NCBI RefSeq assembly: GCF_044324785.1
Contig: NZ_CP172127.1
Length of the DNA: 64,000 nucleotides
Strand: one strand, 5' to 3'
Source of the DNA: Escherichia coli
Lineage (GTDB): Bacteria; Pseudomonadota; Gammaproteobacteria; Enterobacterales; Enterobacteriaceae
Position 1 is the stretch's first letter; each line of letters starts with the position of its first letter. The translations under genes and the position numbers were made by a program. This document shows, piece after piece, positions 1,985 through 8,979 of this stretch. Below the pieces are notes generated by a model, which worked only from the letters and a program-made list of their open reading frames with translations, was not told where the DNA came from and searched no databases.

Positions 1985-2503
1985 AGCACATCCTGATAAT
2001 CCAACCGTACAACACTTATGCTCATTTCATCATCAATCCGTAATCAAAACCGCTGACCTGGACGAGTTACGATGACCTGACAGAAGTATCAGACGTCTTC
2101 TGCGGTTTCTATGATAGAGCAATTCTGTGGCGGATATTAAGATAACGGGTATCTGTTCTTTAATGATGCCGCAAAAAATGGAAAGTTAAGAAAGCCTGGC
2201 GTGGTGAAAAAATACACTTGCCTCAATACTGGATATTTAAACAGGTCTGAAGATGCTGTCACGATTAGGGTGCGGAAAAAGGAAGCGTAAATAAGAACAA
2301 TCAAAAGTACGACGGCAATGGGTTGATTGACAAGGGTATTTTTTAAGCTATGAATCAGCGCCATTTATCACAGAATAGACTTTTACTCTGAATAAATGGG
2401 AGGGTGACTTGCCTCAATATAATCCAGACTATAACATGCCTTATAGTCTTCGGAACATCATCGCGCGCTGGCGATGATTAATAGCTAATTGAGTAAGGCC
2501 AGG

Positions 2504-3199
2504 ATGTCAAACACGCCAATCGAGCTTAAAGGCAGTAGCTTCACTTTATCTGTGGTTCATCTGCATGAGGCAGAACCTAAGGTTATCCATCAGGCGCTGG
2601 AAGACAAAATCGCTCAGGCCCCCGCATTTTTAAAACATGCCCCCGTTGTACTCAACGTCAGTGCACTGGAAGACCCGGTAAACTGGTCAGCGATGCATAA
2701 GGCGGTTTCGGCAACCGGTTTGCGGGTTATTGGCGTAAGTGGCTGCAAAGATGCGCAACTTAAAGCCGAAATTGAAAAAATGGGGCTGCCTATCCTGACG
2801 GAAGGAAAGGAAAAAGCGCCGCGTCCAGCTCCCGCACCGCAGGCTCCAGCGCAAAATACAACGCCGGTCACAAAAACGCGTTTAATAGATACCCCGGTGC
2901 GTTCCGGTCAGCGTATTTATGCTCCACAATGTGATCTGATTGTTACAAGCCACGTTAGCGCTGGGGCCGAATTGATTGCCGATGGTAACATTCATGTCTA
3001 TGGCATGATGCGCGGTCGTGCGCTGGCAGGGGCAAGTGGTGATCGGGAAACGCAAATATTTTGTACGAACCTGATGGCGGAACTGGTGTCCATCGCAGGT
3101 GAATACTGGCTGAGTGATCAAATCCCAGCAGAATTTTATGGCAAAGCGGCGCGACTGCAGTTAGTCGAAAACGCTTTGACCGTTCAACCGTTAAATTGA
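2504..3199 (+). CDS. minC: Septum site-determining protein MinC
   Basis: Track ORF starts at TTG 2489; ATG at 2504 gives [14 protein letters not shown]..., the known 231-aa MinC. Confidence 0.97.
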
Positions 3200-3222
3200 T
3201 CCCTTTTTAACAAGGAATTTCT

Positions 3223-4035
3223 ATGGCACGCATTATTGTTGTTACTTCGGGCAAAGGGGGTGTTGGTAAGACAACCTCCAGCGCGGCCATCGCCACTGGT
3301 TTGGCCCAGAAGGGAAAGAAAACTGTCGTGATAGATTTTGATATCGGCCTGCGTAATCTCGACCTGATTATGGGTTGTGAACGTCGGGTCGTTTACGATT
3401 TCGTCAACGTCATTCAGGGCGATGCAACGCTAAATCAGGCGTTAATTAAAGATAAGCGTACTGAAAATCTCTATATTCTTCCGGCATCGCAAACTCGCGA
3501 TAAAGATGCCCTCACCCGTGAAGGGGTCGCCAAAGTTCTTGATGATCTGAAAGCGATGGACTTTGAATTTATTGTTTGCGACTCCCCGGCAGGGATTGAG
3601 ACCGGTGCGCTAATGGCACTCTATTTTGCAGACGAAGCCATTATTACCACCAACCCGGAAGTCTCCTCAGTACGCGACTCTGACCGTATTTTAGGCATTC
3701 TGGCGTCGAAATCACGCCGCGCAGAAAATGGCGAAGAGCCTATTAAAGAGCACCTGCTGTTAACGCGCTATAACCCAGGCCGCGTAAGCAGAGGTGACAT
3801 GCTGAGCATGGAAGATGTGCTGGAGATCCTGCGCATCAAACTCGTCGGTGTGATCCCTGAGGATCAATCAGTATTGCGCGCCTCTAACCAGGGTGAACCG
3901 GTCATTCTCGACATTAACGCCGATGCGGGTAAAGCCTACGCAGATACCGTAGAACGTCTGTTGGGAGAAGAACGTCCTTTCCGCTTCATTGAAGAAGAGA
4001 AGAAAGGCTTCCTCAAACGCTTGTTCGGAGGATAA
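3223..4035 (+). CDS. minD: Septum site-determining ATPase MinD
   Basis: 270 aa; deviant Walker A GKGGVGKT near N-terminus. Confidence 0.98.
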   Translation: MARIIVVTSGKGGVGKTTSSAAIATGLAQKGKKTVVIDFDIGLRNLDLIMGCERRVVYDFVNVIQGDATLNQALIKDKRTENLYILPASQTRDKDALTREGVAKVLDDLKAMDFEFIVCDSPAGIETGALMALYFADEAIITTNPEVSSVRDSDRILGILASKSRRAENGEEPIKEHLLLTRYNPGRVSRGDMLSMEDVLEILRIKLVGVIPEDQSVLRASNQGEPVILDINADAGKAYADTVERLLGEERPFRFIEEEKKGFLKRLFGG

Positions 4036-4038
4036 GTT

Positions 4039-4305
4039 ATGGCATTACTCGATTTCTTTCTCTCGCGGAAGAAAAACACGGCCAACATTGCAAAAGAACG
4101 GCTGCAGATTATTGTTGCTGAACGCCGTCGCAGCGATGCAGAACCGCACTATCTGCCGCAGTTGCGTAAAGATATTCTTGAGGTCATTTGTAAATACGTA
4201 CAAATTGATCCTGAGATGGTAACCGTACAGCTTGAGCAAAAAGATGGCGATATTTCTATTCTTGAGCTGAACGTGACCTTACCGGAAGCAGAAGAGCTGA
4301 AATAA
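4039..4305 (+). CDS. minE: Cell division topological specificity factor MinE
   Basis: 88 aa, [28 protein letters not shown]...; 3 nt after minD stop. Confidence 0.98.
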
Positions 4306-4332
4306 GCCCGCTGTAAAAGCGCATTTATCTTC

Positions 4333-4362
4333 AAGGCAGAGTCATCTCTGCCTTGAGTTTTT
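4333..4362 (+). terminator. Rho-independent terminator of the minCDE operon
   Basis: aaggcagag / ctctgcctt 9-bp stem with tcat loop, followed by gagttttt. Confidence 0.8.
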
Positions 4363-4574
4363 CATCCCCCTCATCCACGTTTGATAAGAGCGGCGAGTAT
4401 TCTTGCTGATGCTACTCATTGCTTCCCCCCCTTTACACCTTAATGCCGTTCCCCCCACACAGAACAAAATGTTTATACCTGGCTGAGTAAATAACCTTAT
4501 TGTTAGTATGGGTATGCTGGGAGATGATAACCCCGCAATTTCATTATTCATTGTTCTCCCATAGGATGAGGTTT

Positions 4575-4600
4575 CCCGCCGTAACTGGCGGGCTTTTTTT
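4575..4600 (+). terminator. Orphan intrinsic-terminator-like hairpin
   Basis: cccgcc-gtaact-ggcggg followed by ctttttttg; no annotated gene ends here. Confidence 0.5.
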
Positions 4601-4670
4601 GCCGCAGAATTTTCCCTTTTAACACCCTGTAAACGAAAACTGCGCCGAAGCGCAGTTTAATCGTTGATAG

Positions 4671-5114
4671 TCAGAACGACCAGTTCGCACCAGCCACCGC
4701 GTTCCACGGGGATTCCACACCGGCACCATGGCTATACCCCACCCCGAGATGCCCGCTTAACGAACTGCTGAATGAGGCTTTAATACCTGCCTGATATATT
4801 CCACGTCTGCCCGACAAATCATTGACAAAATTACCGTCATTATTCACTTTCACCCGGTTATCATCGACAAATTCTTTGCGCACAGCCATTTTCAGCCACG
4901 GCTCAACTTCCATGCCGTTCCCCAGACGCATGTTGTAACTCAGCGTTGCACCCAGTTCACGATATATACTGCGGGTATCGACTGATTTCGATTCCATGCC
5001 ATTGGATAAATGATAGTAGCGTCTAAGTGACCTTAGCTCTGCTGCAACATCATCCCGCAGGCACCAGACCAGGGGATTGATCCTGAAGAGGCAGCGCAAG
5101 TGTATTGTGTTCAC
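4671..5114 (-). pseudogene. ycgI: Autotransporter beta-barrel C-terminal remnant (ycgI-like)
   Basis: C-terminal ~90 aa (...GIKASFSSSLSGHLGVGYSHGAGVESPWNAVAGANWSF) resemble the end of an autotransporter translocator, terminal F; N-terminal part of the ORF is not protein-like and has no signal peptide or passenger. Confidence 0.65.
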
Positions 5115-5416
5115 CGCTCATCAAAGACATCATGATGAAATAATGATATCCCGCATAAGAAAGAGGCATTTTTTAAACGCAGTGCGCTGAAATGTAGTTG
5201 GATAAAAAAATCACTCTTTTCTGATAATACTGTTGTACGCTTATTTTTCGACAATGAGGCCGTCGACAAAATAAAATGACTAATGTAATCGTTGCTGATG
5301 AATATCTTCTGCTCACATAAAAATCACACAATAATATTGATAAATCAGATTATCTTACCTTTACAACATTGTATTAACAGTCAATGACACTTCTTGAATA
5401 AAAATATTGTCAATCA

Positions 5417-5590
5417 ATGAGTTATTTCTCATTTGAGATTATTCTTATTCCCGTAAAAAACATAATTCCTATCATCACAGTCACGCTCATTTTGAATTAT
5501 CTGAATAATAGCGAGCGTTCTTTAGTTAAGCAGATCTTAATTGAAGACGAAATTATTGTGTGTGCAACTTACTTAATACCGGACATCTAA
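5417..5590 (+). CDS. Candidate small hydrophobic protein, 57 aa (possibly ymgI)
   Basis: ATG 5417 to TAA 5588-5590 gives [57 protein letters not shown]; below the ORF-track size cutoff; the gene name is a guess from length and position. Confidence 0.4.
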
Positions 5591-5591
5591 G

Positions 5592-5936
5592 TTGAAGAAA
5601 AAAATACTTGCCTTCGGGCTTATCTCAGCATTGTTCTGCTCCACGCCAGCGATGGCGGATATGAATCGCACCACGAAAGGTGCATTGCTAGGCGCAGGCG
5701 TTGGTTTACTTACTGGCAATGGTGTTAATGGCGTACTGAAAGGTGCAGCTGTTGGCGCTGGTGTTGGTGCAGTAACAGAAAAAGGCCGCGACGGTAAAAA
5801 TGCGCGTAAAGGTGCAAAAGTGGGTGCCGCCGTTGGTGCTGTCACTGGCGTTCTGACCGGCAATGGCCTCGAAGGGGCGATTAAAGGTGCCGTGATTGGC
5901 GGTACGGGTGGTGCAATTCTGGGTAAAATGAAATAA
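5592..5936 (+). CDS. ymgG: Glycine-zipper protein YmgG, 114 aa, apparent TTG start
   Basis: [22 protein letters not shown] signal then G/A-rich repeats ([11 protein letters not shown]...). Confidence 0.8.
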
Positions 5937-5945
5937 GGAATGATG

Positions 5946-6275
5946 ATGAAAAAATTTGCTTTACTGGCGGGTCTGTTTGTTTTCGCACCAATGACCTGGG
6001 CGCAGGACTACAATATTAAAAACGGTTTGCCGTCAGAAACCTATATTACTTGCGCAGAAGCCAACGAAATGGCAAAAACTGACAGCGCACAGGTTGCAGA
6101 AATTGTTGCGGTAATGGGTAATGCCAGCGTTGCCAGCCGTGATTTAAAAATTGAGCAATCTCCGGAACTGAGCGCCAAAGTGGTAGAAAAACTGAATCAG
6201 GTTTGCGCTAAAGACCCGCAAATGCTGTTGATCACGGCAATTGATGACACCATGCGTGCTATCGGCAAAAAATAA
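5946..6275 (+). CDS. ymgD: Periplasmic protein YmgD, ~109 aa
   Basis: Track ORF 111 aa starting MMMKKF; third ATG matches the expected 109-aa length; signal peptide present. Confidence 0.8.
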   Translation: MKKFALLAGLFVFAPMTWAQDYNIKNGLPSETYITCAEANEMAKTDSAQVAEIVAVMGNASVASRDLKIEQSPELSAKVVEKLNQVCAKDPQMLLITAIDDTMRAIGKK

Positions 6276-6288
6276 TATTTAATATGTT

Positions 6289-6319
6289 ACCGCGTCGATG
6301 AATTCGACGCGGTATTTTA
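6289..6319. terminator. Hairpin between convergent ymgD and ycgH, candidate bidirectional terminator
   Basis: accgcgtcg / cgacgcggt 9-bp stem flanked by A/T-rich runs on both sides. Confidence 0.6.
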
Positions 6320-6330
6320 GCTAACGGGGA

Positions 6331-8979
6331 TCAGAACTTATATTTCAGGCCCACCATCACTGCGGTGTCATTGTAGCCATTATCACCCAGCTGCACGCCC
6401 ACATTACCCCAGACGCTGGCCGCCGGATTCAGATTGCCATTTACGCCAAGTTTAATTTCCCCCAGATTACGCGCCCCGTCTTGTTCAACTTTCACACCGT
6501 TCATTGAGACAGCAAAATCTTTACTGTTATGGATCCAGTTCATTTCAACAAAAGGTTCAAAGTCGTCACCGTGCGGACCGCTGTTTTTCTCCTGAGTACG
6601 AATAAAGGTGCGGAAGCCGAGTCGGGTCTGGATGTTGTTATTTGCGTCACTCTCAATACGTGAGCCATTGGCTTCCGTGTGCGCATTATGATCGACGCCC
6701 ATCCAGATAGCCTGTGCCTGTGGCTGGAAGATCCACGTATATTTCGCCGCTTCCAGACCAAAGGATTTATTCAGGGCAAAACCGTAACCCGCTTCCAGCG
6801 AGACGGTTGCACCTTTCGCGCTATAGGATTCATAGGCTAATTCATCTCCTTTCACCGAGTTTTTAAACCAGCTATATTGCGCCCAGGCGTCAATGTATGC
6901 GCCTTTTTTACTGATGTCATCGGCAAACCAGGTGGCATACAGCCCTGCGCTATAGCCTCTGACACTCCCTTTCGAACGATAATCCGACAAGCTGGAATGA
7001 GTTGAGTTGTAGTCGCGGGCATAACCAGCCATCACTCCCAAACGCCAACTGTCACTGTCGGTAAAACCACCGGTTAACAGATCCGCCCCTAACTGCGAGA
7101 CGTAGCGATGCGAGGTCGTTCTCAACTGTCCGTTGCTGTCACGCCAGGCATTATGCCCGCCAATTTGACGTAGCCAAAGTCGGCTTGAACGCTCCTGTTC
7201 AGTTACAGGATCGATGTAGCGCGTTTCACCTGCACGATCGTTCAGACGCATAACAAAAAGAGTGTTAGCGGCTGCCAGGTTGGCGACGTAACTTCCAGCT
7301 TCGGGGCGCAGAACGGGGGTAGGCGCAACAGTAGGCGCTGAACTTCCTCCGGAGTTTGTTTCACCGCCGCTCGTTGCCTGGAAGTTAGTCAGATACCAGT
7401 TTTTATTGGTCGCTTCGGTATTACCTCGGGTTAATGAATATTCGTAGGCACCGGCGAAAATCCTCGAATCCTTAATAAATTCCCCATTTGATTCCCCCTC
7501 AACGCTGATAATCTCTATCCCATTTAACGTGTAAGCCCCGCTGCCCCCAGCATTGGTAACTTTTACTCGGGTTGTTCCGGAGGTATTTCCATTAATAACA
7601 ACTTTATCAGTAGCTGAATTATCATCACCCAATTCAGTTCTGAGATGCAATACGCCATTATTACCAACGTAATTTTCAGTTATTGTTAACCTTGTTGGTT
7701 CGAAATCCTTTCCATCTGCCCGGGAAATATAGACCGTACTATTGTCAACCGTGAGCTTGCTCACCGTTGAGTCAGTTTTAATATCCCAGGTACTATTATC
7801 TGAAAGCGACAGATAGGTATGAGTGCTATCATCTGTTGAAAGATTGGCTGAACCCGTTATTTTTGAATTAGATGCATCGATGGCCAAATGACCTTTAATA
7901 TTATTAATAAAAACATCTGCAGCCGATGATACCTCACTATCCGTAATGGTCACGTTACTCGTCTCATTTTTATTGTATAGGATTTCATTTGCTGACCGTA
8001 GTGAGCTACCAGATAAAATATCTACCGTTGCTTCCTGACCATTTATGGAAGACTCCAGCACAACTCCAGCCCCCTGATGCGCGACTGCAAATGTATTTTT
8101 CAGCGTCACCGTGCCGCCATTATAAATTTTAGCAATCGCGGCGTCAGGACCCGTTGTATAAATTTCTCCCTGGTTAAATGAAACTGTCCCCTGGCGAGCA
8201 GCGATGGCATGAGCATTGTCCCCATGCGTGGTAATATCAACATCGGTTAATGTAACGCTGGCATTGGTATAATCAAGCTTGCTACCAGCCTTGACGACAG
8301 TGCCATTAGCGTAAGCGGCATAACTTTCTGTTCCGTGGGTTGTTATCTCCCCTTTTGCCATATCCAGTTTTGCTTTGGCGTTATTTTCATTACTTCCTGT
8401 ATCGGCAGTACTTTCTTCATCAAGAGAAGATACACACGCACGCGCGCTTCCGGGAGATGCACAAGCAAGAACGCCGACTGCGTGATTACCCGCAGTAACA
8501 ATAAAAGTATTACCTTCGTCAGATAAATGGGGGTTAACCGAACCGTCAGTGTTGACTCTTATTATGGTATCAGTATTCAGGTTTCCATTCGTTTGACTTA
8601 GCAAACCAATTGAGTAATCCCCCGTTGTGACAATCGTATTATTACCCTGCAAAATAACTGCACCGCCATATTCACTTACGACTGCGCTAGCTGTATATAC
8701 TGTGCTTAGAGGACTATTGCCAGAAGGATATAAACCACCCGTTGTTACAATGACGCCTTTGTTAATGGTTAAATTGCTACCCTCTCCTGCAACAGATACC
8801 CCGTAACTTCCATTACCCGTTGTTATAACTAGCGCATTATCAATATCTTTTACTTCTCCATCTTTTATTGCCACAGCATGTTTATATTCATCGTGCTGAA
8901 TAAACTGTTCAGCATATGCATTACCCACCGCCAAAGCAATAAGTCCTAAACTAAACCCGGGGAGTTTTTTCAGTTTCAT
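6331..8979 (-). CDS. ycgH: Autotransporter (type Va) adhesin-like protein, intact 882 aa (ycgH)
   Basis: Signal peptide MKLKKLPGFSLGLIALAVGNAYA, long G/T/S/N-rich passenger, C-terminal barrel ending ...VMVGLKYKF; position between ymgD and ymgF. Confidence 0.85.
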   Translation of the reverse strand: MKLKKLPGFSLGLIALAVGNAYAEQFIQHDEYKHAVAIKDGEVKDIDNALVITTGNGSYGVSVAGEGSNLTINKGVIVTTGGLYPSGNSPLSTVYTASAVVSEYGGAVILQGNNTIVTTGDYSIGLLSQTNGNLNTDTIIRVNTDGSVNPHLSDEGNTFIVTAGNHAVGVLACASPGSARACVSSLDEESTADTGSNENNAKAKLDMAKGEITTHGTESYAAYANGTVVKAGSKLDYTNASVTLTDVDITTHGDNAHAIAARQGTVSFNQGEIYTTGPDAAIAKIYNGGTVTLKNTFAVAHQGAGVVLESSINGQEATVDILSGSSLRSANEILYNKNETSNVTITDSEVSSAADVFINNIKGHLAIDASNSKITGSANLSTDDSTHTYLSLSDNSTWDIKTDSTVSKLTVDNSTVYISRADGKDFEPTRLTITENYVGNNGVLHLRTELGDDNSATDKVVINGNTSGTTRVKVTNAGGSGAYTLNGIEIISVEGESNGEFIKDSRIFAGAYEYSLTRGNTEATNKNWYLTNFQATSGGETNSGGSSAPTVAPTPVLRPEAGSYVANLAAANTLFVMRLNDRAGETRYIDPVTEQERSSRLWLRQIGGHNAWRDSNGQLRTTSHRYVSQLGADLLTGGFTDSDSWRLGVMAGYARDYNSTHSSLSDYRSKGSVRGYSAGLYATWFADDISKKGAYIDAWAQYSWFKNSVKGDELAYESYSAKGATVSLEAGYGFALNKSFGLEAAKYTWIFQPQAQAIWMGVDHNAHTEANGSRIESDANNNIQTRLGFRTFIRTQEKNSGPHGDDFEPFVEMNWIHNSKDFAVSMNGVKVEQDGARNLGEIKLGVNGNLNPAASVWGNVGVQLGDNGYNDTAVMVGLKYKF

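Follow-up and report, generated by a model that had tools for sequence, protein, structure and literature searches.

What occupies the AT-rich interval between minE and the ymgG-ymgD operon of Escherichia coli, and does it contain a gene that annotation has overlooked? The question was raised by a 64,000-nt stretch of E. coli DNA (NCBI RefSeq assembly GCF_044324785.1, contig NZ_CP172127.1), referred to here as the window. For positions 4671-5590, the initial annotation listed an autotransporter barrel remnant, a very AT-rich stretch with few open reading frames, and a 57-codon hydrophobic ORF abutting ymgG, and proposed that this last ORF could be a genuine membrane microprotein missed by size cutoffs. 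The minus-strand ORF (4671-5114), the AT-rich stretch and the 57-codon hydrophobic ORF were all found where it had placed them. The GC content of 200-nt windows between about 5100 and 5600 is 0.27-0.36, versus 0.45-0.55 for the flanks, which bears out the AT-richness. The described scarcity of ORFs holds only in part, as the minus strand of this stretch contains two 52-codon ORFs (the halves of a frameshifted ymgJ) and one 39-codon ORF. The locus is an ordinary and known one: the ycgI pseudogene, ymgJ and ymgI are all present in existing E. coli annotation, and the proposed interpretation is partly supported overall. We consider it highly probable that the interval is a composite of the ycgI deletion pseudogene and the control region of ymgGD, with ymgI lying on top of the latter as non-coding sequence.

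The 57-codon ORF (5417-5590, plus strand) has an ATG start and a TAA stop at 5588-5590, and ymgG begins with TTG at 5592. The same 1-nt gap separates the stop from ymgG in all strains compared. The ORF is orthologous in position, and equal in length, to the annotated ymgI of K-12 (57 aa). Its product is identical at 53 of 57 residues (93%) to WP_000122462.1, designated “protein YmgI” in E. coli C, O157:H7, O145 and other strains, relative to which it carries S4F, K7E, H12P and A22V. The ORF was therefore not missed by size cutoffs, since it corresponds to an annotated gene that PGAP names “protein YmgI” and whose database homologues bear the precomputed Pfam label PF28591. Note that the allele in the window is labeled only “hypothetical protein” by PGAP, and that the local Pfam and NCBIfam profiles contained no YmgI model, PF28591 being encountered solely as the precomputed label. 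The hydrophobic character reported for the ORF is real (GRAVY 0.94), and the highest-scoring 19-residue Kyte-Doolittle window (2.31, residues 8-26) is a segment of about the length expected for a single-pass small membrane protein. Residues 8-26 include K14, N15 and two prolines, and vary between strains at P12H and V22A. The length of the ORF is not significant: when 5116-5591 is shuffled with dinucleotides preserved, 14% of the shuffles contain an ORF of at least 57 codons that begins with ATG, and 24% contain one if any start is allowed. Its hydrophobicity exceeds the expectation from composition and is reached by about 1.5% of shuffles.

The initial annotation had named a lack of conservation in related genomes as evidence against a microprotein, and none of the four non-coli Escherichia lineages compared (one representative each) has the ORF uninterrupted. 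Codon 3 is TAT in E. coli and the stop codon TAA in all four representatives. Three of these (L006-L008) include further stops in L007 and L008 and a frameshift in L007, and the fourth, E. albertii (L009), has no ATG and three stops. Homologues are confined to Escherichia and Shigella and have differing starts, and those of other species are 48-53 aa long. Variable sites are distributed over the three codon positions of ymgI as 18/21/19 (chi-square p 0.89), whereas the same count gives 10/3/49 for ymgG (p 1e-13) and 4/3/52 for ymgD (p 5e-18). Among 10 E. coli alleles, ymgI has seven non-synonymous polymorphisms and one synonymous, compared with 0 and 15, respectively, for ymgG and ymgD together (Fisher p 3e-5). 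The synonymous or third-position excess expected of a functional gene is thus absent from ymgI. The amino acid changes include E7K, P12H and F4S, and five YmgI protein variants exist among strains whose YmgG and YmgD are identical (YmgG is the same protein in 10 of 10 E. coli sampled). The ORF is intact in all 10 alleles and in large database clusters, which is expected under neutrality because there are only 8 polymorphic sites. By these comparisons, ymgI is most likely not a conserved protein-coding gene, and the claim of a genuine microprotein is left unsupported.

The ORF also overlaps the experimentally mapped promoter and 5′ untranslated region of ymgGD, which further disfavors a microprotein. 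The transcription start site of ymgG determined by RACE and recorded in RegulonDB (K-12 1223097; ymgG coding sequence 1222644-1222988) maps to 5482/5483 in the window, inside ymgI, and the primer of the published “ymgG-110+90” fusion matches 5482-5503. This start site, at codon 22-23 of ymgI, is the only one reported in the area; a promoter or start site upstream of ymgI and a ribosome-binding site of its own, as expected of a functional gene, were not found, and the 15 nt preceding its ATG (ATATTGTCAATCAATG) contain no Shine-Dalgarno-like purine run. At the ymgG promoter, the Reg-Seq data (PMC7567609 supplement) give an activator footprint from -56 to -31, with the activator unnamed, and a “repressor” site from -111 to -97. 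Mapped onto the plus strand of the window, these correspond to 5427-5452 and 5372-5386, respectively. Within the activator footprint, the sequence TGAGATTATTCTTA at 5434-5447 (plus strand, -49 to -36) is a perfect match to the RcsB consensus TN(G/A)GAN4TC(T/C)NA (PMC7913699). Of 9 aligned sequences, 8 conform to the consensus, with all their substitutions at degenerate positions, and L008 has lost it. RcsB motifs are not enriched in the window (2 found versus 2.6 expected), so the box is credible only because of its position, its location in the footprint and its conservation. In the literature, ymgGD belongs to the Rcs regulon and is induced by Rcs.

The arrangement resembles that of the RcsB-activated promoters rprA and osmC (cited in PMC7913699), where a 14-nt pseudopalindrome likewise adjoins the -35 element. 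The box at ymgG is centered at -42.5, with a weak -35 beside it and a good -10 further downstream, for which the candidate, judged by its position relative to the published start site, is TATCAT at 5470-5475 (plus strand, -13 to -8; TATTAT in L006-L008). Unlike at rprA and osmC, RcsB is the predicted occupant of the ymgG site, the Reg-Seq activator there having no name. We infer that RcsB binds the box in a class-II-like arrangement beside the weak -35, with transcription proceeding from 5482/5483, and that 5371-5591 constitutes the control region of an Rcs-regulated, stress-induced ymgG-ymgD operon. A generic sigma-70 scan missed this promoter, as expected for one that is activator-dependent and has a poor -35; the matches that it gave, at 5199-5277 and on the minus strand, did not outnumber those in shuffled sequence. 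Two other candidates for regulation were discarded. The palindrome TTAAGCAGATCTTAA (5526-5540) has half-site spacing one nucleotide too short for RcsB and is located downstream of the start site, where it forms the stem of the second leader hairpin. An FlhDC SELEX peak assigned in its listing to the interval from ymgJ to minE falls within minE and is irrelevant.

Transcripts starting at 5482/5483 carry a 5′ untranslated leader of 109-110 nt (5483-5591, plus strand). It is followed by ymgG (5592-5936, plus strand), which encodes a glycine-zipper protein of 114 aa with a signal peptide and starts with TTG (GTG in E. albertii), by ymgD (5940-6275, plus strand; 111 aa) and by a terminator-like hairpin at 6288-6314. 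There is 1 segregating site in 109 nt of leader among 10 E. coli, and divergence from the sister lineages is 5.5-11% in the leader versus 23-33% just upstream. Hairpins are predicted at 5484-5517 and 5519-5547, with weak and purely local comparative support, and they may contribute to the function of the leader. As a whole, the leader does not exceed shuffles in stability (z 0.03), and an Rfam scan of 4250-6350 at E<=1 returned nothing. A riboswitch-entropy match filed under “ymgD,ymgG” was set aside, as it is 3.5 kb away and belongs to another locus. A possible pairing site for OmrA/B, UUAAUACC, is located at 5574-5581 (plus strand), where it overlaps the weak ribosome-binding region of ymgG; the Omr seed sequence is presumably GGUAUUGA. 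A preprint describes repression of the ymgG -110+90 fusion by OmrA/B through the 5′ end of these RNAs, with nucleotides 3-6 not used. Taken as a mechanism, the conserved leader of 110 nt would carry the 5′ hairpins and the OmrA/B-sensitive initiation region of the UUG-started ymgG. The ymgI ORF, which spans -66 to +108 of the ymgGD unit, would then be open most likely by accident, given AT-rich DNA, low diversity and a recent mutation of codon 3 from TAA to TAT. The peptide would not be under selection, and YmgI protein is probably absent.

Three other readings assign some role to translation of the ORF. One holds that ymgI is a recently born, E. coli/Shigella-specific ORF, opened by the loss of ancestral stops in the ymgGD promoter and leader, such as that at codon 3 (TAA to TAT). 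With low-level translation, it would be either a proto-gene for a hydrophobic peptide or a uORF that tunes ymgG by terminating 1 nt before its UUG; we regard this reading as doubtful.

It is also unlikely, and somewhat more so, that the act of translation is what matters. Here, a leader ORF beginning at GTG 5558 or UUG 5492 and ending at UAA 5588-5590 would pass ribosomes to the ymgG UUG at 5592, by termination-reinitiation or by opening a CAACUUA/UAAGUUG helix. The single nucleotide between stop and start is typical of translational coupling, ymgG has a UUG or GTG start with only a weak GGA upstream, and in every lineage the ymgG-adjacent frame is open over the last 18 or so codons. The predicted helix pairs 5565-5571 with 5588-5594 and thereby covers the ymgG start codon, but it shows no covariation and belongs to a leader of unexceptional stability (z 0.03). 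Similarly, 5544-5608 is almost invariant, although this is equally explained by a region for ribosome binding and sRNA pairing. Where the ORF overlaps the leader, its variable sites lack codon periodicity (7/8/8), the candidate GTG is GCG in L008, and none of the internal starts has a Shine-Dalgarno sequence.

Very unlikely is the proposal that YmgI is a genuine, E. coli-specific single-pass inner-membrane microprotein, made from rare read-through or upstream-initiated transcripts and perhaps acting with YmgG and YmgD. To its credit are an annotated gene with Pfam-labeled homologues (PF28591), an ORF that is unbroken in every E. coli sampled and throughout large database clusters, and a hydrophobic window (2.31) above compositional expectation. 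There is also a low but non-zero RNA-seq signal, 40-200 times below that of ymgG, which rises 4-7 fold on envelope stress. Such microarray or RNA-seq signal for “ymgI”, however, can arise from the overlapping ymgG leader. Note that the low signal is itself hard to square with a stable 110-nt leader covering 63% of ymgI, unless shared fragments were assigned to ymgG. The supplements of acid-stress Ribo-seq studies have no entry for ymgI, and the single assay found for a ymgI knockout showed no phenotype. Deleting ymgI would remove the ymgGD promoter, and any phenotype would therefore be confounded. Against the proposal stand also the absence of purifying selection, with 7 of 8 polymorphisms changing an amino acid and no codon periodicity, the broken ORF in all four sister-lineage representatives, and the absence of a Shine-Dalgarno sequence from an ORF whose sole mapped start site is internal. 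We therefore return to ymgI as non-coding sequence superimposed on the ymgGD control region.

The left part of the interval has a separate origin. The ORF at 4671-5114 (minus strand) encodes 147 aa from a GTG start, and only part of it is autotransporter. Residues 34-125 match positions 152-254 of 255 in the Pfam Autotransporter profile PF03797 (E 5.7e-11), and all 114 residues encoded by 4671-5015 match positions 319-432 of 432 in TIGR01414 (E 1.5e-21), while residues 1-33 have no match in Pfam or NCBIfam. The initial annotation was thus right that this is a barrel terminus, although it put the genuine part at about 90 residues and the last 114 belong to it. As it had also stated, passenger and signal peptide are missing, on which profile searches and the alignment described below agree: of the features of a type Va autotransporter, the complete 12-strand barrel domain (PF03797/TIGR01414), the N-terminal Sec signal peptide and any detectable passenger domain are all absent.

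An intact counterpart was found in strain EC17CM6 (L004), in the same slot between minE and ymgJ. It encodes an AIDA-type autotransporter of 1120 aa, paralogous to ypjA, with AIDA repeats, a Pertactin domain and an Autotransporter barrel matching profile positions 1-254 of 255. The DNA of the remnant is 98% identical to the 3′ end of this gene. Window positions 4201-5015 align to L004 4133-4946, and 5015-5700 align to L004 8001-8685, leaving 3054 bp of L004 (4947-8000) missing from the window, with the junction at 5015 and an overlap of 1 nt. The lost segment held about 1006 codons of the gene, together with the 36 bp that precede its start codon (L004 7964). Being orthologous to and syntenic with a full-length gene of the family, the remnant is thus a derived pseudogene, and the suspected deletion is confirmed with an exact breakpoint. 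The window segment 5016-5114 aligns from L004 8001 onward, that is, upstream of the intact start codon, so the first 33 codons of the 147-codon ORF (5016-5114, minus strand) are spurious. The span 4671-5015 (minus strand) retains the last 114 codons and the stop codon of a beta-barrel from an AIDA-I-type autotransporter. It is the ycgI pseudogene, long annotated and described as such in the literature. It is identical in locus, strand and junction to ycgI of K-12, where the fragment is likewise downstream of minE. PGAP calls the same span “incomplete; missing N-terminus” in the closest strain, N3, and an equivalent fragment of 344-345 nt an incomplete autotransporter beta-barrel in every strain examined. 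E. coli C, A4 and p11A carry a further frameshift within the fragment; in the window the fragment remains in frame, so that the 147-codon ORF extends upstream. At least 80% of a junction-spanning query was matched in at least 4568 of 5426 complete genomes, a query that is unable to count intact alleles because the ypjA paralogue matches all of it at about 90%.

The intact allele in L004 and ypjA are 92-93% identical in passenger DNA and 88% in the 5′ flank. They are separate paralogues, the copy at the minE locus (1120 aa) being shorter than ypjA in strain USML2 (about 1526 codons). Compared with the AIDA-I-type (type Va) adhesin YpjA/EhaD, the window keeps the last 114 codons only. These alignments suggest that an AIDA-I-type adhesin gene, a paralogue of ypjA/ehaD reading leftward, formerly lay between minE and ymgGD. 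A single illegitimate deletion of 3054 bp would have removed 36 bp of the start-proximal 5′ UTR, the signal peptide, the passenger and about 60% of the barrel, joining the remaining 114 barrel codons to former upstream DNA, with the 147-codon ORF an accident of the fusion. Its unbroken 147 codons, its GTG start and the enrichment reaching from minCDE into a ycgI homologue in a UPEC library screen might suggest that this ORF yields a shortened outer-membrane barrel fragment that has its own function. This reading is effectively refuted by the existence of frameshifted alleles in E. coli C and other strains. The first 33 codons, moreover, derive from non-coding DNA, and the signal peptide is absent. 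Roughly the C-terminal 40% of the barrel profile is all that is left, which makes a closed 12-strand barrel impossible. The ycgI RNA signal is very low (0.6 to 1.6), and the authors of the screen attribute the ycgI enrichment to linkage with minC.

The same deletion would have orphaned the AT-rich 5′ flank of the adhesin gene, with ymgJ and the 39-codon ORF in it. This flank (5016-5370) makes up most of the AT-rich stretch, and over 356 nt it shares 88% identity with the sequence directly upstream of ypjA (L016 1035-1390). The 39-codon ORF (5050-5169, minus strand; “hypothetical protein”) is located just upstream of the former autotransporter start codon, and 33 of its 39 residues are identical in a paralogous ORF upstream of ypjA. 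ymgJ (5130-5316, minus strand) is frameshifted in the window, where the A-run at 5204-5210 has 7 A, compared with 6 in E. coli C. The tract is 3 nt shorter (TATAAA) in strain N3, and PGAP flags ymgJ as “frameshifted” in N3 and p11A. In E. albertii, the autotransporter in the slot between minE and ymgGD differs from that of E. coli.

The value of these results is mainly one of curation, and no new element is revealed. Both the K-12 annotation and Pfam include ymgI, yet its evolution bears the signature of non-coding DNA, and the ORF coincides with the Rcs-responsive promoter and sRNA-targeted leader of ymgGD. Changes in “ymgI” expression in microarray and RNA-seq studies probably report that leader. 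ymgJ probably has the same non-coding signature. If the newborn-ORF reading were true, ymgI would provide a tractable natural case of de novo gene birth atop a regulatory region. Together with the differing autotransporters of the slot, the exact map of the ycgI deletion points to rapid turnover of adhesin genes beside a conserved core operon.

The E. coli locus reads minC-minD-minE, ycgI', ymgJ, ymgI, ymgG and ymgD (2489-6275), where ycgI' designates an autotransporter remnant and ymgI an ORF of 57 codons. All or part of a 1.7-kb query around the finding was matched in 5424 of 5426 complete E. coli genomes, with the closest strain, N3, showing 99.1% identity. The ymgI ORF (5417-5590, plus strand) is real and adjoins ymgG, its TAA lying 1 nt 5' of the ymgG TTG start (5592), and its hydrophobic nature was confirmed (GRAVY 0.94). 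Its length is unremarkable for the composition, as 14-24% of shuffles reach at least 57 codons; its hydrophobicity is somewhat unusual (~1.5% of shuffles reach the same). The initial annotation proposed a membrane microprotein missed by size cutoffs, but PGAP already annotates the orthologous ORF, as “protein YmgI”, in strains that include E. coli C and O157:H7. Database homologues of YmgI carry the precomputed Pfam label PF28591 and come from Escherichia and Shigella only. The “homologues” of 48-53 aa called in other species have non-orthologous start codons, and no Shine-Dalgarno-like sequence was found ahead of the ymgI ATG.

Coding potential was assessed in an alignment of 5330-6290 in which ten alleles came from E. 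coli and four further Escherichia lineages were each covered by a representative genome. The ymgI frame is interrupted in all four non-coli representatives. Codon 3 is TAA in three of these (L006, L007 and L008); L007 and L008 have more stops at codons 14 and 39, and L007 also has a 1-nt deletion. The fourth, E. albertii, lacks the ATG and has stops at codons 3, 4 and 13. The most parsimonious reading is that the frame opened on the E. coli lineage. Variable sites at codon positions 1, 2 and 3 number 18, 21 and 19 in ymgI (chi-square p 0.89), versus 10, 3 and 49 in the control ymgG (p 1e-13) and 4, 3 and 52 in the control ymgD (p 5e-18). Eight sites in ymgI segregate across the ten E. coli alleles, and seven of them change an amino acid (F4S, F4L, S5L, E7K, P12H, V22A and I57N), yielding five distinct proteins. 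By comparison, all 15 segregating sites in ymgG and ymgD are synonymous, giving one protein each (Fisher p 3e-5 versus ymgI). Broken in the representatives of four sister lineages, devoid of codon periodicity and with seven of eight polymorphisms non-synonymous, the frame most likely does not encode a conserved microprotein. A YmgD homologue (63% identity) is present in Edwardsiella hoshinae, where DNA similarity reaches back to window 5667, inside ymgG; this homologue implies that ymgGD long predates the ymgI ORF.

Published work assigns the ymgG-ymgD operon to the Rcs envelope-stress regulon (PMC2731931, PMC3599342, PMC5105897). In the Reg-Seq study (PMC7567609), the RegulonDB RACE start at K-12 position 1223097 is described as the sole start site in the area, which corresponds to a 109-nt leader relative to the ymgG CDS (1222644-1222988). 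A “ymgG -110+90” fusion was built for a 2026 OmrA/B preprint; its forward primer, in the gene-specific portion, is an exact match to window 5482-5503. These two independent sources place the ymgG transcription start site (TSS) at 5482/5483, at ymgI codon 22-23, and therefore ymgI covers -66 to +108 of the ymgGD transcription unit. A TATCAT/TATTAT hexamer is located at -13 to -8. The Reg-Seq data also include an activator footprint, its factor unnamed, at -56 to -31 (PMC7567609), which maps onto window 5427-5452. Inside this footprint is a candidate RcsB box, TGAGATTATTCTTA (5434-5447, -49 to -36), that perfectly matches the consensus TN(G/A)GAN4TC(T/C)NA defined in PMC7913699. The motif by itself is not enriched in the window (2 found versus 2.6 expected); what makes this box credible is where it lies, the footprint around it, its conservation and the fact that the operon is known to be Rcs-regulated. 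The consensus is kept in eight of nine aligned sequences, E. albertii included, and substitutions in those eight all fall at degenerate positions.

Of the eight ymgI polymorphisms, seven precede the TSS (10.6 per 100 nt) and one falls in the 109 nt of the leader part. Interspecies divergence is 5.5-11% in the leader versus 23-33% in the ymgI part upstream of the TSS. Judged by this pattern of substitution, constraint on the last two-thirds of the “YmgI” frame acts on nucleotides, not on codons. That the ORF is a de novo proto-gene or a coupling uORF we regard as improbable; most probably, ymgI is incidental, confined to its lineage and superimposed on an RcsB-activated promoter and the conserved 5' leader that follows.

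Published RNA-seq values (PMC5105897), taken from table columns shown without a unit, rise with a LolCDE inhibitor from 0.67 to 2.9-5.0 for ymgI, from 25.6 to 630-679 for ymgG and from 66 to 1285-1604 for ymgD. The low ymgI values imply that transcripts covering the whole ORF are rare. Both without inhibitor (0.67, 25.6 and 66) and at the lower inhibitor dose (2.9, 630 and 1285), the values in these columns climb along the unit from ymgI through ymgG to ymgD. Such a rise is unexpected for a single transcript from 5483 and may reflect processing of the leader, initiation at an internal site or an artefact of counting. A stable 110-nt leader would cover 63% of ymgI at ymgG-like depth; the tabulated ymgI value is instead 40-200 times lower (PMC5105897). 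It is possible that fragments spanning the boundary were assigned to ymgG, that the leader is rapidly processed, or that there is a second proximal Rcs-dependent start, all of which are compatible with scarce full-length ymgI mRNA. In a microarray study “ymgI” changed 16-fold and its knockout had no butanol phenotype. Note that a ymgI probe would detect the ymgG leader too.

An Rfam search of the leader matched no family, and the 143-nt leader-plus-start region is not more stable than shuffles. Two hairpins are nevertheless predicted consistently. In the 5'-terminal hairpin (5484-5517), one GC-to-AU pair is compensatory and two one-sided changes are compatible with pairing; this hairpin would plausibly stabilize the mRNA. 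The second (5519-5547) has invariant stems and a hypervariable loop, into which the L007 deletion and the L007 and L008 “stops” fall. The covariation and loop pattern argue modestly for RNA structure in the leader. According to the OmrA/B preprint, repression of the -110+90 fusion occurs via the conserved Omr 5' end, with nt 3-6 not used. An invariant block (5544-5608) spans a candidate Omr site, a weak GGA ribosome-binding region and the ymgG start codon (TTG in E. coli, GTG in E. albertii). Using what we take to be the Omr sequence, the candidate pairing is between UUAAUACC at 5574-5581 and Omr nt 7-14.

The minus-strand ORF at 4671-5114 is also real (147 aa, GTG start). As initially described, only its C-terminal part is an autotransporter beta-domain, although this comprises 114 residues and not ~90. 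Pfam PF03797 matches ORF residues 34-125 at profile positions 152-254 of 255, and TIGR01414 matches all 114 residues of 4671-5015 at positions 319-432 of 432. Several BLAST matches broke at query position 716, equivalent to window 5015, which is the exact end of a PGAP pseudogene labelled “incomplete, missing N-terminus”. Strain EC17CM6 (L004) carries an intact gene in the minE-ymgJ slot whose 1120-aa product has six AIDA repeats, Pertactin and a complete Autotransporter domain. Alignment to this allele bore out the proposed deletion remnant and placed the junction at 5015. The left arm pairs window 4201-5015 with L004 4133-4946 (98%) and the right arm pairs 5015-5700 with L004 8001-8685 (96.5%), leaving a single overlapping base and omitting the 3054 bp of L004 4947-8000. 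With the intact gene starting at L004 7964, the loss comprises ~1006 codons and a further 36 bp 5' of the start; window 5016-5114, which supplies the initial 33 codons of the 147-aa ORF, used to lie upstream of that gene.

The L004 passenger DNA shares 92-93% identity with the true ypjA locus, and the DNA immediately 5' of ypjA resembles window 5015-5370 at 88% identity. The likeness of both passenger and 5' flank indicates that the lost gene is a ypjA paralogue, duplicated with its 5' flank. The stretch at ~5100-5600 had been called AT-rich and ORF-poor; its GC content is indeed 0.27-0.36, but its minus strand holds a frameshifted ymgJ and a 39-codon ORF. By sequence likeness, most of it is the 5' flank of the lost paralogue. 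The ymgJ poly-A tract (5204-5210) has seven A residues in the window and six in E. coli C, and is TATAAA (3 nt shorter) in N3. Changes in its length shift the frame, and in N3 and p11A the PGAP annotation marks ymgJ as “frameshifted”. As this frameshift in the window and other strains and the many protein variants indicate, ymgJ is likewise unstable. The 39-codon ORF (5050-5169, minus strand) lies just upstream of the former autotransporter start. A paralogue that shares 33 of its 39 residues occupies the corresponding place upstream of ypjA (1070-1189 of L016, the ypjA-containing locus). The ORF might be an adhesin-gene leader ORF, or simply conserved 5' UTR sequence.

The 365 bp from the minE terminator (4330-4357) to ycgI' (region 4360-4670) contain no annotated feature, and an Rfam search across 4360-4670 gave no match. 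A strong terminator-like hairpin at 4575-4592 (plus strand; CCCGCCGTAACTGGCGGG then T7), with C-rich runs on its 5' side, may mark where a small, unannotated transcript ends.

Carriage of the deletion allele, taken as a match to at least 80% of the junction-spanning 1.7-kb query, was found in at least 4568 of 5426 genomes. Other states of the slot are the intact gene of L004, a longer remnant cut by IS1203, a larger deletion (window 4361-5326) in strain MS10711 and a copy lacking the C-terminus in O157:H7. Segment 4308-5314 is entirely absent from L006, L007 and L008. In MS10711 the minE terminator is joined almost directly to the ymgGD control region, and L006-L008 are similarly compact (~178 bp from minE to the homologue of window 5315). 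From these layouts, the whole autotransporter cassette behaves as an insertion/deletion unit. In E. albertii the slot holds a different autotransporter (L009 1-1236, minus strand); over its N-terminal 380-500 residues it shares only 31-33% identity with its E. coli counterpart, a level that suggests replacement and not vertical descent. A ycgH-type autotransporter gene 3' of ymgD (6331-8979, minus strand) encodes 882 aa that include AC_1, Pertactin and a complete barrel. The window strain has it intact; in E. coli C, O157:H7 and O145 it is a pseudogene, disrupted by a frameshift or internal stop. It is the second autotransporter within this 5-kb neighbourhood whose function is present or absent by strain.

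The small ORF is the annotated ymgI and the remnant is the already known ycgI pseudogene, and a specialist would find nothing surprising in either. New for ycgI are the exact deletion map and the identification of its parent as a ypjA/ehaD paralogue. The useful yield is a curation warning on ymgI and a clean anatomy of the locus.
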